Positions 36,904 through 41,342 of a DNA stretch of 64,000 nt are shown here, in pieces. A program made the position numbers and the translations under genes. Below the pieces are notes generated by a model. It was not told the origin of the DNA. It worked only from the letters and a program-made list of their open reading frames with translations, and did no database searches. The DNA is from Thermoplasmataceae archaeon (GTDB lineage Archaea; Thermoplasmatota; Thermoplasmata; Thermoplasmatales; Thermoplasmataceae), in contig JBJKSW010000004.1 of NCBI GenBank assembly GCA_046703525.1, forward strand, positions 11,638 to 75,637, written 5' to 3'. Numbering within the stretch: the stretch's first letter is position 1; each line of letters opens with the position of its first letter.

Positions 36904-37803
36904 ATGGTTAATTGTCCAGTATGCGGAGAAAGTTTCGATCGTGGCGACTACGACTCTCTTGCTACTCATTTCAACAGGTATATCGATAGAAACGAACCCT
37001 CGCACATAGACTGGGTTCGAATTAATGTTCCACTCTCTGATTACGAATCAAACGCCTTCATTGAAAAGTTGCAGTCGTTTTTCACAGTTACACCAGAAAA
37101 TATCGAGAACTGGTTCTGGAAACGTATAGTTGAGAGATTCTATACAGACAGGCCGAACACATTTATTGAGGCCATGCAGAGGCCCAAGAAAGCTACGTTT
37201 ATGGGGTATGCGATGGAAAACTACAGCTTTGCCAAGCAGCGTGTGAAGTCGCTTGCCTATGTGATTGCCAAGACAGACAAGGAAGACGTGCAGATCTATG
37301 AGGGAACACTACTTACTGGAGATCTTGTGTACAACGGATCTTCAAACAAGTCCAACGTGGCGCTCCTGGTGCAGATGGCAGAAAGTGTGGGATTGCCGAA
37401 AGACACGCTAATGACATCAATGCCACTGCCTCCTACACTGCATTCAATAAAACTGTGGAATGGCATAGCAGAGAACGGGCACTGGCTAGACATTATGGCT
37501 TCTTCAAACCTCCTTGACCTTGTTCATTCACCGAAGATCAAGGATGCGGGTTCCAAACTCTACTATTTTGGCAATGGAGTTGTTGACAATGAGTGGATTC
37601 CAGACCCTGTGAAAGAATATCTTAAATTCACCAGAGATGTCATAGGCACCAATGCAGAAGAGGGCCTCCATCTAGTGGCCAAGTATGCCATAGAACTCAA
37701 GATGGTGGAAGAAGTGCAGAGCATTTTCCTAAGGTCCCTGGACGCCTTCGAGAGGCATCTTCAGGCAAGAATGACCAGGGCAAAGCAGTTCGAAGCGAAG
37801 TAG
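36904..37803 (+). CDS. Hypothetical protein with N-terminal CxxC..H zinc-finger-like motif and a helical C-terminal domain
   Basis: It begins MVNCPVCGESFDRGDYDSLATHF. The remainder is helical with no motif I can name confidently. Confidence 0.5.
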   Translation: MVNCPVCGESFDRGDYDSLATHFNRYIDRNEPSHIDWVRINVPLSDYESNAFIEKLQSFFTVTPENIENWFWKRIVERFYTDRPNTFIEAMQRPKKATFMGYAMENYSFAKQRVKSLAYVIAKTDKEDVQIYEGTLLTGDLVYNGSSNKSNVALLVQMAESVGLPKDTLMTSMPLPPTLHSIKLWNGIAENGHWLDIMASSNLLDLVHSPKIKDAGSKLYYFGNGVVDNEWIPDPVKEYLKFTRDVIGTNAEEGLHLVAKYAIELKMVEEVQSIFLRSLDAFERHLQARMTRAKQFEAK

Positions 37804-38091: not shown

Positions 38092-38772
38092 TCACAGGTC
38101 AACTTCCACTGTTACTTCGTCTCCATCCTTGAGGTTCAGAGTCCCTCTGAGAAATTTTTCTGAAATAAATTCTATTACATCTGTGTATACTGTGCGCTCA
38201 GGCATTATCACGGCCCCTTCCACGCCGTTTATTCTCGCTGGAAAGGCCTTTACATCACCAAAGGTCCGGTCATCTGTGCTGAAGCCGTCGATGTGTATTC
38301 CTTCAGATGACCTTAAACGCCTGAGCTGATCCCAGTCTGCCTGCTCAACTTTTACGTTGAGTGTGCCCAGGTATGGGATCATGTTCAGCTTGTATTGGAA
38401 CTGGCGAATGTAATTTTTCCTTGAAATGTAATATCTTCCTTCTCCAAGGCCGCTTGACACACGCCCCGGTATCCTTATTCTTGCCTCCATTCCAAGTATC
38501 CTTGAGAGTGAAGAAAGTTCCGAATACAGAAGATGAAGGCCCTGTTCCGTTATCTTCAGAGTCTGTTTTCTGTTTTCAAGGCTTCTTGTGAGATAACCCT
38601 TCTCAACAAGCTGGAGTATGAATCTGGAGGCGGATTGCTGGCTCTGCCCTATCTTTCCGGCCAACTCTGTAGAGGATACGGTTATCCTGTTTGACTGCCC
38701 CGCCATCCTCTTTATTTCTTTCAGGACAAAGTAAAACTTGAGCTGATCCGCATCCGGCTTTGTGTACACCAT
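38092..38772 (-). CDS. ribK: CTP-dependent archaeal riboflavin kinase fused to an N-terminal winged-HTH domain (RbkR-type bifunctional regulator/kinase)
   Basis: The C-terminal half GRVSSGLGEGRYYIS..YLGTLNVKV..AVIMPERTVY matches the MJ0056-type kinase. The N-terminal ..STELAGKIGQSQQSASRFILQLVEKGYLTR.. is a wHTH. Confidence 0.8.
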   Translation of the reverse strand: MVYTKPDADQLKFYFVLKEIKRMAGQSNRITVSSTELAGKIGQSQQSASRFILQLVEKGYLTRSLENRKQTLKITEQGLHLLYSELSSLSRILGMEARIRIPGRVSSGLGEGRYYISRKNYIRQFQYKLNMIPYLGTLNVKVEQADWDQLRRLRSSEGIHIDGFSTDDRTFGDVKAFPARINGVEGAVIMPERTVYTDVIEFISEKFLRGTLNLKDGDEVTVEVDL

Positions 38773-39162: not shown

Positions 39163-39780
39163 CTACTTGACAACTTCACTTATTGCCGTTTTTCTTCTAA
39201 TCTTCTTGATCAGAACTTCGACTGTAACTCCCTTTTTGCCGCCGGGAACTAGAATTGTATAGCCCATGTAATTGGCTTTTCCTTCGCCGGATGTACCAAC
39301 ATCTGTGACGGTAACAGTGTATTTCTTTCCCTCTTCCACATCAGCCTCAAGCCTCTTGGAATCCCTGGAAACTCTGACAGAGTGCTGAGCTCCACACGCC
39401 TTGCACACGAGGACATCAACTCTGCCGACCCTTTCCATTTCCGTGTCTGGAGAACCGCATTCGTAACAGATAACATAAGTTTCCATGTATTCCCTGATTT
39501 TTTGCTGTATTGTGTTTGCATCCACTTTCTTGTTTATGATCAGCCTGCGTCCGTCCATTGCAACACCGATTCCGAGCTCCCGCGTGAAATGTTTCATGAT
39601 CGCCTTTGCTGGCCTGTTTATGAGCTCCCCTATGTCCTGAAAATTCCTTATGATTGTCACTTTACCCTCAGATATGACGTCCGGCTCCGGGATCTTGAGT
39701 CTGCTTTGGACTTTGGTTGAATCAGAAAAGGCGCCCTCAGCCTTATTGAGGAGTTTCATGTAATCATCTTCTACTGCCAT
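39163..39780 (-). CDS. eif2b: Translation initiation factor aIF-2 subunit beta with C-terminal TRAM-like extension
   Basis: It has the core ..IRNFQDIGELINRPAKAIMKHFTRELG.. and the zinc ribbon CYECGSPDT..CKACG. An extra ~60-aa C-terminus (KKYTVTVTDVGTSGEGKANYMGYTILVPGGKKGVTVEVLIKKI) is beta-barrel/TRAM-like. The track start is GTG 39801; an ATG lies at 39780. Confidence 0.85.
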   Translation of the reverse strand: MAVEDDYMKLLNKAEGAFSDSTKVQSRLKIPEPDVISEGKVTIIRNFQDIGELINRPAKAIMKHFTRELGIGVAMDGRRLIINKKVDANTIQQKIREYMETYVICYECGSPDTEMERVGRVDVLVCKACGAQHSVRVSRDSKRLEADVEEGKKYTVTVTDVGTSGEGKANYMGYTILVPGGKKGVTVEVLIKKIRRKTAISEVVK

Positions 39781-40006
39781 AAATGCAGTATGCAATTTCA
39801 CTATTAATATTAATCAGGAAAGAACTGGACCAACCTTTCATTAGCGTTTACCGCCCCAAAAACCGGCGATGTCTGAGCCATCTTAACATAACATAACGGC
39901 AATAATTATAGTTGTATATTTTCTTTGTATGGACAACCAATTTCATCAAAACAGGATGATGTGATATAAATCAGCTAAAATAAGCTTTTATGTGTGTCTT
40001 CGATTT

Positions 40007-40025
40007 AATTATTAATTTAATAATT
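40007..40025. promoter_or_regulatory. 19-bp palindrome AATTATTAA-T-TTAATAATT in the AT-rich region upstream of the RHH gene; candidate RHH operator
   Basis: It is seen directly, with 9-bp perfect arms, 67-85 nt upstream of ATG 40092. A TTTATATA box lies at 40056-40063. The AT-rich context lowers its statistical weight. Confidence 0.3.
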
Positions 40026-40055
40026 GTATAGACATATGTATGACGATGAGATATC

Positions 40056-40063
40056 TTTATATA
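40056..40063 (+). promoter_or_regulatory. TATA box (TTTATATA) for the RHH/FtsZ-like operon
   Basis: The consensus archaeal TATA is centred about 32 nt upstream of ATG 40092, implying a very short or absent leader. Confidence 0.4.
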
Positions 40064-40091: not shown

Positions 40092-40520
40092 ATGGACCAG
40101 GGAGAAAAAATAACACTGAGGATATCCAGAGACAATCTGGATGAAATTGACGAGTTTCTGGACAGAAACCCCAGATACGGCAGCAGGTCAGAGTTTCTTA
40201 GAAACCTGGCAATAGATTTCATTGCCAAGACCAGAGTTCAAATGATACAGTCCAACGAGACTGTGTGCGTTAAATTGCCTGCTTCCATTGACACATGGAT
40301 CTCCCAAGCAGTAAACAAGGGTATTTTCAACAATGTCAGCGAGGCAGTTGGAATACTACTGAATGATCTTGACGCGAGCGGAAAACTTCTCGAGATCATA
40401 GAGAACAGGTTTAAGCTTGAAGAGAAGAAGAGAGAGGTCCTGCGCAAGTATACAGAAAACCCAACTGATTCCGATGAAAGTGAGCAATATAACAGATTCA
40501 GAACAGGAAGAGAGGTGTAA
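40092..40520 (+). CDS. Tandem ribbon-helix-helix (CopG/Arc/MetJ-type) DNA-binding protein
   Basis: There are two RHH-like units: KITLRISRDNLDEIDEFL..GSRSEFLRNLAIDFI and VCVKLPASIDTWISQAV..NNVSEAVGILLNDL. These are followed by a charged helical tail. Confidence 0.65.
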   Translation: MDQGEKITLRISRDNLDEIDEFLDRNPRYGSRSEFLRNLAIDFIAKTRVQMIQSNETVCVKLPASIDTWISQAVNKGIFNNVSEAVGILLNDLDASGKLLEIIENRFKLEEKKREVLRKYTENPTDSDESEQYNRFRTGREV

Positions 40521-40523
40521 AAA

Positions 40524-41342
40524 TTGGAAACTGAAATGGAAGAATATGGAGCTATGCTGAGTCAGAAAGAAATAAATGACCTGACATCAAGAGTCGTAAA
40601 GGAATACTTTGAGGAGCACAGTGACAGTACAATAATATCCTTCGGCAAAGCAGGAAGCAGAATAATAAAGAGAATGCTTCCCTTTGAAAGCGGCAGGACA
40701 AATTTCCACACTGTCAACCTTGACAGAGAGACGGTAACAAAGATGCCAAAGGGCAAAGGGAAGATAGCAAAAAGGCTGCTCAAGAGATCAAACTACCTTG
40801 AAGTTGACCTGGACGGGAGTTCTGTGAGCGTCAGCGGATACAAGAACACGGGAGTGAGCGTTGAGAGCATATATTACAAAGTGAGCAACCTTAATGTCAG
40901 GTATGACAAGTTCATGTCATCACCCAGGTTTGTTGCCAACGAAATACTCGCCAACATAGAGAAATCATCAATGTTCATACTTGTGACAGGCTTTGGCGGT
41001 ACCTTTGGCCAGACAATGCACATCGAATTTTCCAGGATGCTCAGGCAGAGGAAGATACCTCACATGAATGTTGTAATCAAACCGTCCAGGCTGGAAAAAC
41101 AGAGAAGGTCCCTTGCGCAGAGAGCAATAACTGAACTCATGAACGAAGACGGCCCTGTGTTCGTCTACGACAACGAAGACTACATCGACAAGGGAAGAAT
41201 GTTCGATTCACTCCACGCAGCTGAGATTACTGACAGGATAAACGAGAAGATAGGAATGGATATCTGGCTTTACAATCTCAGGCTGACCGATCAGTTCGGC
41301 GTTCTGAAAGAAGACAACAGTATTTTTTCAAGCATACTCTGA
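40524..41342 (+). CDS. FtsZ/tubulin-superfamily-like protein: N-terminal GTPase-domain homolog with degenerate signature motif, lacking the T7 loop and C-terminal domain
   Basis: It aligns by eye to FtsZ: IISFGKAGSRIIKRM, TVNLD, SMFILVTGFGGTFGQT (FtsZ has GGGTGTG), NVVIKPSRLEKQRR, AQRAITELMNEDGPVFVYDNEDY. The TTG start lies 6 nt after GAGGTG; an alternative ATG is at 40536. Confidence 0.6.
   Translation: METEMEEYGAMLSQKEINDLTSRVVKEYFEEHSDSTIISFGKAGSRIIKRMLPFESGRTNFHTVNLDRETVTKMPKGKGKIAKRLLKRSNYLEVDLDGSSVSVSGYKNTGVSVESIYYKVSNLNVRYDKFMSSPRFVANEILANIEKSSMFILVTGFGGTFGQTMHIEFSRMLRQRKIPHMNVVIKPSRLEKQRRSLAQRAITELMNEDGPVFVYDNEDYIDKGRMFDSLHAAEITDRINEKIGMDIWLYNLRLTDQFGVLKEDNSIFSSIL

Follow-up and report, generated by a model that had tools for sequence, protein, structure and literature searches.

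What role can be assigned to two adjacent genes of a Thermoplasmataceae archaeon, one encoding a protein of the ribbon-helix-helix (RHH) type and the other a protein that resembles only part of FtsZ? We analysed this pair in a 64-kb stretch of contig JBJKSW010000004.1 (hereafter the window; positions are counted from its first nucleotide, and the features are collected in Table 1). The components described so far for FtsZ-based division in archaea are FtsZ1, FtsZ2 and SepF, together with some accessory proteins and CdrS, an RHH regulator. An earlier note on the same DNA had read the two genes as a candidate DNA-anchored cytomotive or segregation-like module. The reading that we favour, at a probability of about 45%, is an autoregulated CdrS-like operon whose second product would be a non-polymerising paralog of the FtsZ N-terminal domain that modulates the canonical FtsZ ring.

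The 272-residue FtsZ-like protein was compared with profile and structure databases. It matched the Pfam Tubulin/FtsZ GTPase domain (PF00091) with 39.4 bits (E = 1e-9; gathering cut-off, 33), residues 37-220 aligning on positions 4-185 of the 190-position profile, while the other members of its family scored 19.6-32 bits against this model, often under the cut-off. The family profile retrieved only FtsZ chains from the PDB (T. maritima, 3.3e-7; M. jannaschii, 2.3e-5). An AlphaFold2 (AF2) model computed from a 24-sequence family alignment reached a mean predicted local distance difference test score (pLDDT) of 74 and a predicted template modelling score (pTM) of 0.71, with the core residues 120-225 at pLDDT 85-96. 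When this model was searched against the PDB with Foldseek, the top 50 matches were all FtsZ or CetZ (E = 2e-7 to 2e-5; probability 1.00). The modelled architecture comprised an N-terminal helix (residues 14-31), a Rossmann-type GTPase-domain core and a final long helix (residues 229-264) equivalent to H7. The chain ends after this last helix, and no match to the FtsZ C-terminal domain (PF12327) was found in the protein. The C-terminus, ...KEDNSIFSSIL, follows H7 directly, without a linker or the SepF-binding tail (archaeal GID motif). The AF2 model and the Foldseek matches thus define an FtsZ N-terminal domain with its H7 helix and without the C-terminal domain. Against the FtsZ equivalog TIGR00065, the match was 30 bits over residues 138-223 only, compared with a trusted cut-off of 295. 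The alignment with FtsZ that the earlier note had drawn by eye was reproduced by HMMER, which aligned the T1, T2, T4, T5 and H5-S6-T6 segments identically, and the fold that it had proposed was borne out by the structure search.

The nucleotide-pocket motifs were then mapped by profile alignment to the FtsZs of T. maritima and M. jannaschii and by a wide family alignment. At T1, the window protein carries S-F-G-K-A-G-S-R where FtsZ has GxGGxGNN; G41 is invariant in the family, and A43 and G44 are nearly so. No GLGAG-type T3 motif was found in residues 71-117, the insertion at the T2-T3 region. We rejected this insertion as a conserved basic patch for DNA or membrane binding, as it is basic in only 17 of the 24 sequences (those of the window's subclade) and acidic in the Oxyplasma and Thermoplasma clades. 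At T4, GFGGTFGQT in the window protein and the consensus GFGG-x-F-x-Q-x-x-H in the family take the place of the tubulin signature GGGTG(T/S)G, of which just the first two glycines are retained; G158 and H166 are invariant, and F157, G159, F161 and Q163 nearly invariant. T5 (P..E..R), T6 (YDN) and the H7 Asn are kept across the family. The NLRLTD segment of the window protein resembles a T7 loop, but it is not conserved: distant members carry LSE, LSN, MSG or ISS. The conserved residues cluster at the former nucleotide pocket (G41, A43, G44, G158, G159, F161, Q163, H166, P187, D216, N217 and N240). Judged from these alignments, the phosphate-handling loops and the entire lower filament face of the protein are lost or rewritten, while the base and ribose side is strongly kept. 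In FtsZ filaments, each GTPase site is made complete by the T7 loop of the adjoining subunit. With the lower face and the phosphate loops lost or rewritten, canonical head-to-tail polymerisation and cooperative GTP hydrolysis by the FtsZ-like protein are very unlikely.

Relatives of the protein were sought at increasing depth. A word-index search returned 9, and a full hidden Markov model scan of 1.84 billion representatives gave 36 matches at E <= 1e-3, of which 24 were strong and all 244-285 aa long. A scan of one genome per species identified 23 loci, all assigned to Thermoplasmata, Thermoplasmatales or Thermoplasmataceae and including the cultured Oxyplasma meridianum, and a cluster look-up added Thermoplasma volcanium GSS1 (BAB59798.1, annotated 'cell division GTPase') and a Thermoplasma sp. 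('hypothetical protein'). Altogether, an intact FtsZ-like open reading frame (ORF) of constant length was present in >25 genomes, down to 25-30% identity. An RHH ortholog of 138-142 aa lay directly upstream on the same strand in every locus with upstream DNA (22/22) and in T. volcanium, so that the pairing postulated in the earlier note is conserved. For the FtsZ-like and RHH genes, the ratio of nonsynonymous to synonymous substitution rates (dN/dS) was 0.04-0.08 and 0.07-0.13, respectively, in the same range as pyrI and indicative of purifying selection; these values come from close relatives with saturated synonymous sites and are approximate. Given the family-wide length and this selection, the short chain is a selected family trait and not a truncation. 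The flanks were stable across most of the group, in the order TenA-like gene, riboflavin kinase, PIN, aIF2-beta (- strand), the pair (+ strand), pyrI-pyrB (- strand) and HMG-CoA reductase, and the pair likewise adjoined aIF2-beta in four further contigs of close relatives and on the T. volcanium chromosome. We also considered a defence, phage or RNA element and rejected it: PADLOC and Rfam returned no hit, no viral contig was found, and PHROG gave weak matches only, the best to PhuZ (E = 0.0044). The fixed synteny and the missing defence or viral association indicate that the pair is a vertically inherited chromosomal unit and a probable operon.

The published survey of archaeal FtsZ lists two FtsZs (BAB59948.1 and BAB59169.1) and a SepF (BAB59368.1) for T. 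volcanium, and FtsZs on contigs 78 and 164 of the metagenome-assembled genome (MAG) UBA582 (PMC8178401, Supplementary Data 1). The members of the present family are separate from these, being BAB59798.1 in T. volcanium and a gene on contig 108 in UBA582, and the family member is not listed in that survey by Pende et al. (PMC8178401, Supplementary Data 1). The FtsZ-like protein is therefore an extra paralog, which stands beside two canonical FtsZs in T. volcanium and UBA582, and beside SepF. The same proteins rule out a degenerate replacement of a lost FtsZ2; the downstream gene does not qualify as an FtsZ2 ortholog and is a short, degenerate paralog. Canonical FtsZ genes were absent from both the window and the Thermoplasmata loci. 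A search with the profile of the first RHH unit for canonical cdrS-ftsZ2 loci returned only RHH proteins of toxin-antitoxin systems linked to ParE or HicA, and the weak tail of the profile search was discarded as an FtsZ reference set, being a heterogeneous set of unrelated FtsZ-like proteins, short or otherwise odd. When the literature was searched with the T. volcanium accession numbers, no publication that names the family member was found.

The RHH protein was divided into two units and a long helix (Table 1). Unit 1 is a clear RHH with the pattern K-I-T-L-R-I-S ... IDEFL ... GSRSEF(I/L)R, in which K6, T8 and R10 of the beta-strand, G30, and R32-S33-E34-F35 are invariant. Its best NCBIfam family was CdrS in 19 of 21 orthologs (best E = 2e-6); aCcr1 was matched in 13/21, and further matches were to NikR, ParR (4/21 orthologs, weak) and HicB-RHH. 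The window protein scored 24.8 bits (E = 1.6e-5) against the CdrS model NF058555, whose cut-off is 100, and is thus not identified as a CdrS ortholog; as NF058555 is a haloarchaeal equivalog, the low score leaves room for distant homology. Unit 2, with the pattern strand-helix-G-[FY]-helix, gave a weak ParD match (25.5 bits and E = 1e-5 for the window protein, with a cut-off of 46.2), which recurred in 6/21 orthologs, and no match to Pfam or the PDB. A recent internal duplication relating the two units was rejected, their similarity being undetectable by hhalign (probability 0.3%). The AF2 model of the RHH protein (pTM 0.33) contained two helix-helix units joined by a 13-residue disordered linker, and a long C-terminal helix. 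Foldseek found nothing significant for this low-confidence model, and its list was headed by ParD/ParDE chains. The 'tandem RHH' of the earlier note is accordingly only partly supported, by a clear unit 1 and a unit 2 that matches ParD below threshold; the single-chain pseudo-dimer that it had envisaged was not recovered, the strands being left unpaired in the model. The symmetry of the upstream boxes described below, TGT...ACA, together with the variable second strand, rather favours homodimers formed by unit 1.

Comparison of the upstream regions pointed to a candidate operator. A layout shared across loci has 1-3 copies of TGTATGGACA or its reverse complement directly 5' of the TATA box. 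Positions -120 to -30 were scanned in either orientation with <=2 mismatches allowed. Of 26 loci, 20 had a box, located between -57 and -91, whereas shuffles gave 1.8 loci on average and at most 7; box density was 10.7/kb against a background of 1.0/kb, about 10-fold enriched. Exact matches to TGTATRGACA occurred twice in the 64-kb window, both inside this intergenic region. Within the proximal box, the AGACA block is invariant among aligned close relatives. In the partial third box, GT..GAC is invariant in relatives, and its tandem 11-12-nt spacing recurs in L003, L007 and L008. T. volcanium carries a copy, TGTATGACA, within its intergenic spacer of ~50 nt. The TTTA[TA]ATA(C) block is equidistant from the start codon in most loci, with the variants TAATATAC, CTTATATAC and GTTATATAC in a few, and this position implies a leaderless or short-leader transcript if the block is indeed the TATA box. 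The box has its TGTAT core in common with both AGTATTA, the aCcr1 site, and TGTATTAT, the ccr-2 box, and aCcr1 boxes have been reported to be similar to the CdrS motif. Sites for CdrS have been reported 41-110 nt upstream of the transcription start (PMC8406309). The range of -57 to -91 seen here falls inside these limits. Taken together, position, symmetry and enrichment of the box, with the invariant strand residues K6, T8 and R10 as further indirect evidence, suggest that it is the operator of the RHH protein and that the pair may be autoregulated.

Other elements of the spacer were examined as well. The earlier note had described the 290-bp region as repeat-bearing, of which two to three short conserved boxes remain; we rejected a centromere-like repeat array, having found only short two-copy matches and no iteron array. 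An imperfect palindrome with 16-nt arms (81% complementary) at 40000-40032, just 5' of the proximal box, is not conserved in close relatives and is therefore probably incidental AT-rich sequence. The sole exact extra copy of the box seen outside the RHH promoter was the reverse complement TGTCCATACA at L020:10256-10265, in a MAG of the Oxyplasma clade, where it precedes the likely start of pyrB by ~120 nt.

The two genes appear to be tightly coupled. Both are on the + strand, and the 3-nt gap and the GAGGTG ending 6 nt before the TTG start, which the earlier note had read, were confirmed from the sequence. In loci where both ORF ends were resolved, the gap ranged from -14 to +14 nt; in T. volcanium, as in several MAGs, the genes overlap by 4 nt. 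This arrangement suggests that the two genes are co-transcribed and that translation of the FtsZ-like gene is probably coupled to that of the RHH gene. On the downstream side, the stop of the FtsZ-like gene abuts the stop of the convergent pyrI with zero spacer (41342/41343), and no terminator-like element was seen between the two stops.

Under the favoured reading, the RHH protein would dimerise through its CdrS/aCcr1-type unit 1, and the dimer would bind the TGTATGGACA boxes 5' of its own TATA box, and probably other promoters too, and thereby set expression of the pair. The FtsZ-like protein, made of the 'upper' domain and H7 only, would be unable to form head-to-tail filaments or to hydrolyse GTP cooperatively. 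It could then modulate the FtsZ1/FtsZ2 ring, for example as a scaffold, or as a capping or sequestering protein that binds filament ends at their T7 face. This is close to an alternative that the earlier note had mentioned, namely an autoregulated modulator of the canonical FtsZ ring. Several observations weigh against it. Every RHH family match is far under its trusted cut-off (for CdrS, 24.8 against 100 bits). In the RHH protein, unit 2 with its likeness to ParD and the long helix at the C-terminus hint at contacts with another protein, a role for which a simple transcription factor has no use. The kept T5, T6 and H7 Asn, with F161, Q163 and H166, could mean a nucleotide-like ligand and a function unrelated to the FtsZ ring. 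Some other factor could bind the box. Finally, no second box-bearing promoter was found in the ~400 kb of the window and loci, so that a wider regulon is unsupported, and we rejected that part of the reading.

One rival reading is a toxin-antitoxin-like pair, in which the FtsZ fragment inhibits division, the RHH protein binds and neutralises it through unit 2 and the C-terminal helix and represses the operon, and the ratio of the two gates division. In its favour are the likeness of unit 2 to the ParD model (E = 1e-5; 6/21 orthologs), the ParD/ParDE chains heading the non-significant Foldseek list, the RHH-first, effector-second order of type II systems and a tight coupling or overlap of genes that favours fixed stoichiometry; an FtsZ N-terminal domain without its lower face would also be a plausible filament capper. 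Yet the pair is inherited vertically at a fixed chromosomal position, unlike mobile toxin-antitoxin modules, it has no PADLOC hit and no known toxin family, and unit 2 is statistically weak. We hold this reading to be unlikely, and the pair does not qualify as a type II (ParD-type) module, since the partner has an FtsZ fold and belongs to no known toxin family, inheritance is vertical and PADLOC is silent. If the pocket is instead given most weight, the FtsZ-like domain may have been re-purposed as a ligand sensor, for small-molecule or nucleotide binding or an enzyme-like Rossmann role, which works together with the RHH regulator or just shares its regulation and has no part in the FtsZ ring. 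The most conserved residues do surround the former nucleotide pocket, and the kept T5/T6 ribose and base contacts beside rewritten phosphate loops fit a changed ligand better than a dead pocket. The locus offers no functionally linked metabolic genes, however, division genes are under the control of both CdrS and aCcr1, the nearest regulator families, and we know of no precedent for ligand-sensing re-purposing in the FtsZ family; this reading seems rather unlikely to us.

A third way to join the two products is a complex of the pseudo-GTPase with the two-unit RHH protein on the TGTATGGACA boxes, which would dock on or cap filament ends and serve as a chromosome-to-divisome tether or a nucleoid-aware checkpoint; we regard it as quite improbable. 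The module proposed in the earlier note, in which the RHH protein on a centromere-like site loads or anchors FtsZ-like filaments for segregation, appears very improbable. The adaptor-then-NTPase order behind repeats does resemble type II/III partition cassettes, 4/21 RHH orthologs weakly match the ParR model, and two box positions ~100 bp apart are kept in the window's subclade. Against this stand a protein without the GGGTG(T/S)G signature, T3, a conserved T7 or a C-terminal domain, in which the canonical polymer interface and GTPase switch are absent, only 2-3 boxes by the TATA box with no iteron array, an intergenic region of ~50 nt in T. volcanium, and a locus that is not borne on a plasmid or virus and has no recognisable origin gene nearby. 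The cytomotive claim is thus not supported, and neither is the parallel that had been drawn with ParR-ParM and TubR-TubZ, given operator-like boxes at a TATA box, chromosomal housekeeping synteny and no plasmid, viral or defence association. As for a decaying remnant, a pseudogenised ftsZ copy behind a functional regulator, the degenerate GTP-binding motifs and the missing half of the protein would be expected, but dN/dS is as low as for pyrI, the ORF keeps a constant length across the family, and F161, Q163 and H166 are new invariant or near-invariant residues. The selection and conservation data refute this reading, which we consider close to nil.

Table 1. Features of the RHH/FtsZ-like locus, with positions in the window; residue numbers refer to the respective protein.
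Feature	Position	Strand	Description	Basis
RHH gene	40092..40520	+	ATG start, 142 aa	ORF list and sequence
RHH protein, two-unit			Unit 1, residues 5-47; disordered linker, 48-60; unit 2, ~58-97; long helix, 98-122; variable tail	
Shine-Dalgarno-like GAGGTG	40512..40517	+	6 nt before TTG, within 3' end of RHH gene	Read from sequence
FtsZ-like gene	40524..41342	+	TTG start, 272 aa	ORF list and sequence
Altered T1 loop region IISFGKAGSRIIKR	40632..40673	+	Residues 37-50, replaces GxGGxGxN	HMM alignment
Low-confidence insertion	40734..40874	+	Residues 71-117, at FtsZ T2-T3 gamma-phosphate-sensing region	pLDDT <50
Degenerate T4 tubulin signature SMFILVTGFGGTFGQTMH	40968..41021	+	Residues 149-166	Profile and family alignment
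Distal box TGTATGGACA	39926..39935	+	Kept in close relatives L024, L025, L027	
Proximal box TGTATAGACA, putative RHH operator	40025..40034	+	-67 to -58 from ATG, just 5' of the transcription factor B recognition element (BRE)/TATA	
Partial third box TGTATGAC	40037..40044	+	12 nt start-to-start from proximal box	Read from sequence
Putative archaeal TATA box TTTATATA	40056..40063	+	-36 to -29 from ATG	Promoter-architecture inference

Three neighbours upstream of the pair have features of their own. The aIF2-beta gene (39163-39801, - strand), the constant divergent neighbour of the pair, encodes a protein with a C-terminal TRAM domain (PF01873 + PF01938), and the same fusion is present in T. volcanium and close relatives. 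The gene at 38092-38772 (- strand) codes for a fusion of a MarR-type winged helix, at the N-terminus, with a CTP-dependent riboflavin kinase, presumably resembling the bifunctional RbkR-type regulator/kinase. The 299-aa TenA/THI-4 family protein (36904-37803, + strand), which is syntenic with the locus, has an N-terminal CxxC...H zinc-finger-like segment, and an ortholog gave a faint zf-C2H2_9 match.

Other unusual FtsZ-like proteins emerged from the searches. Complete FtsZ-like genes of 188-229 aa that end after H7 were found outside Thermoplasmata (L033:4001-4690, L034:4001-4669 and L035:4001-4567); they have more canonical G-boxes and no RHH gene upstream. One of these three is on a contig with a protein that NCBI lists from a Micrarchaeota MAG (BCS91194.1), one lies behind a GerE-type helix-turn-helix gene, and one has as neighbours an integrase and a primase (DUF3987/Toprim), suggestive of a mobile element. 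FtsZ proteins consisting of the N-terminal domain only may be a recurrent, unstudied theme. The representative search also returned P0030, an 826-aa tandem fusion in which a Q/P-rich linker connects one complete FtsZ (PF00091 + FtsZ_C) to a second of the same composition.

These results indicate that Thermoplasmata, including cultured wall-less acidophiles, carry a further FtsZ-family protein under selection, which has only the upper half of the fold and has lost the signature. If it caps or scaffolds filaments, it would be a natural 'half-FtsZ' regulator and a handle on the tuning of division in wall-less cells, and RHH regulators would then be tied to division genes in Halobacteria (CdrS), Sulfolobales (aCcr1) and Thermoplasmata alike. 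Direct tests of these predictions are feasible, since the two proteins are small and cultures exist of T. volcanium and Oxyplasma meridianum.

Among known systems, the partition cassettes ParR-ParM and TubR-TubZ-tubC share with the pair a DNA-binding adaptor (an RHH protein in ParR) followed by a cytoskeletal-fold NTPase, with promoter-overlapping repeats upstream. They differ in their intact nucleotide sites, polymerising NTPases, multi-iteron centromeres and carriage by plasmids or phages, none of which was found here. FtsZl1 and other divergent FtsZ-like families resemble the window protein in being without T6-H7 or C-terminal filament elements, which makes polymerisation doubtful (PMC2875224). 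FtsZl1 itself keeps GGGTG(S/T)G and has a coiled coil, a unique C-terminal domain and vWA, OmpA or kinase neighbours (PMC2875224), whereas the Thermoplasmata family has lost the signature, measures ~260 aa and has an RHH partner. SulA, which binds the T7 face (PDB 1OFU), and MciZ (PDB 4U39) offer a functional analogy, in that one filament face is occupied and FtsZ assembly is blocked; they are bacterial proteins of unrelated folds, induced by stress or sporulation. On the regulator side, aCcr1 of Sulfolobales and their viruses is likewise a division-linked RHH protein (PMC9976878, PMC9976892), and its matches among the RHH orthologs (13/21) and the shared TGTAT core are set against scores that remain sub-threshold. 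SIFV gp29, of the aCcr1 clade, has two RHH motifs in one chain (PMC9976892).

The closest likeness is to cdrS-ftsZ2. The earlier note knew of no described pairing of RHH and FtsZ-like genes, but cdrS-ftsZ2 had already been characterised (PMC7439475, PMC8406309, PMC8178401): it is a co-transcribed operon conserved across Euryarchaeota (PMC7439475), the cdrS ORF of H. volcanii lies 3 nt upstream of ftsZ2 (PMC8406309), and Pende et al. note 'ftsZ2 frequently with parD' (PMC8178401). The pair shares with it a small RHH gene immediately 5' of, and co-directional with, an FtsZ-family gene, the 3-nt spacing of H. volcanii, CdrS as the best NCBIfam family for the RHH orthologs (19/21), and putative sites 5' of the TATA box. 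In contrast to CdrS, which has ~60 aa and one RHH, the window protein has a second, weakly ParD-like unit and a long helix, and in contrast to FtsZ2, a GTPase of full length that includes the C-terminal domain and a tail for SepF binding, its partner is an N-terminal domain with H7 and a degenerate G-box. The pair is, moreover, an extra one restricted to Thermoplasmata, and it misses the CdrS and FtsZ cut-offs widely. Instead of a novel segregation machine, it therefore appears to be an undescribed, Thermoplasmata-specific offshoot of the cdrS-ftsZ2 plan.

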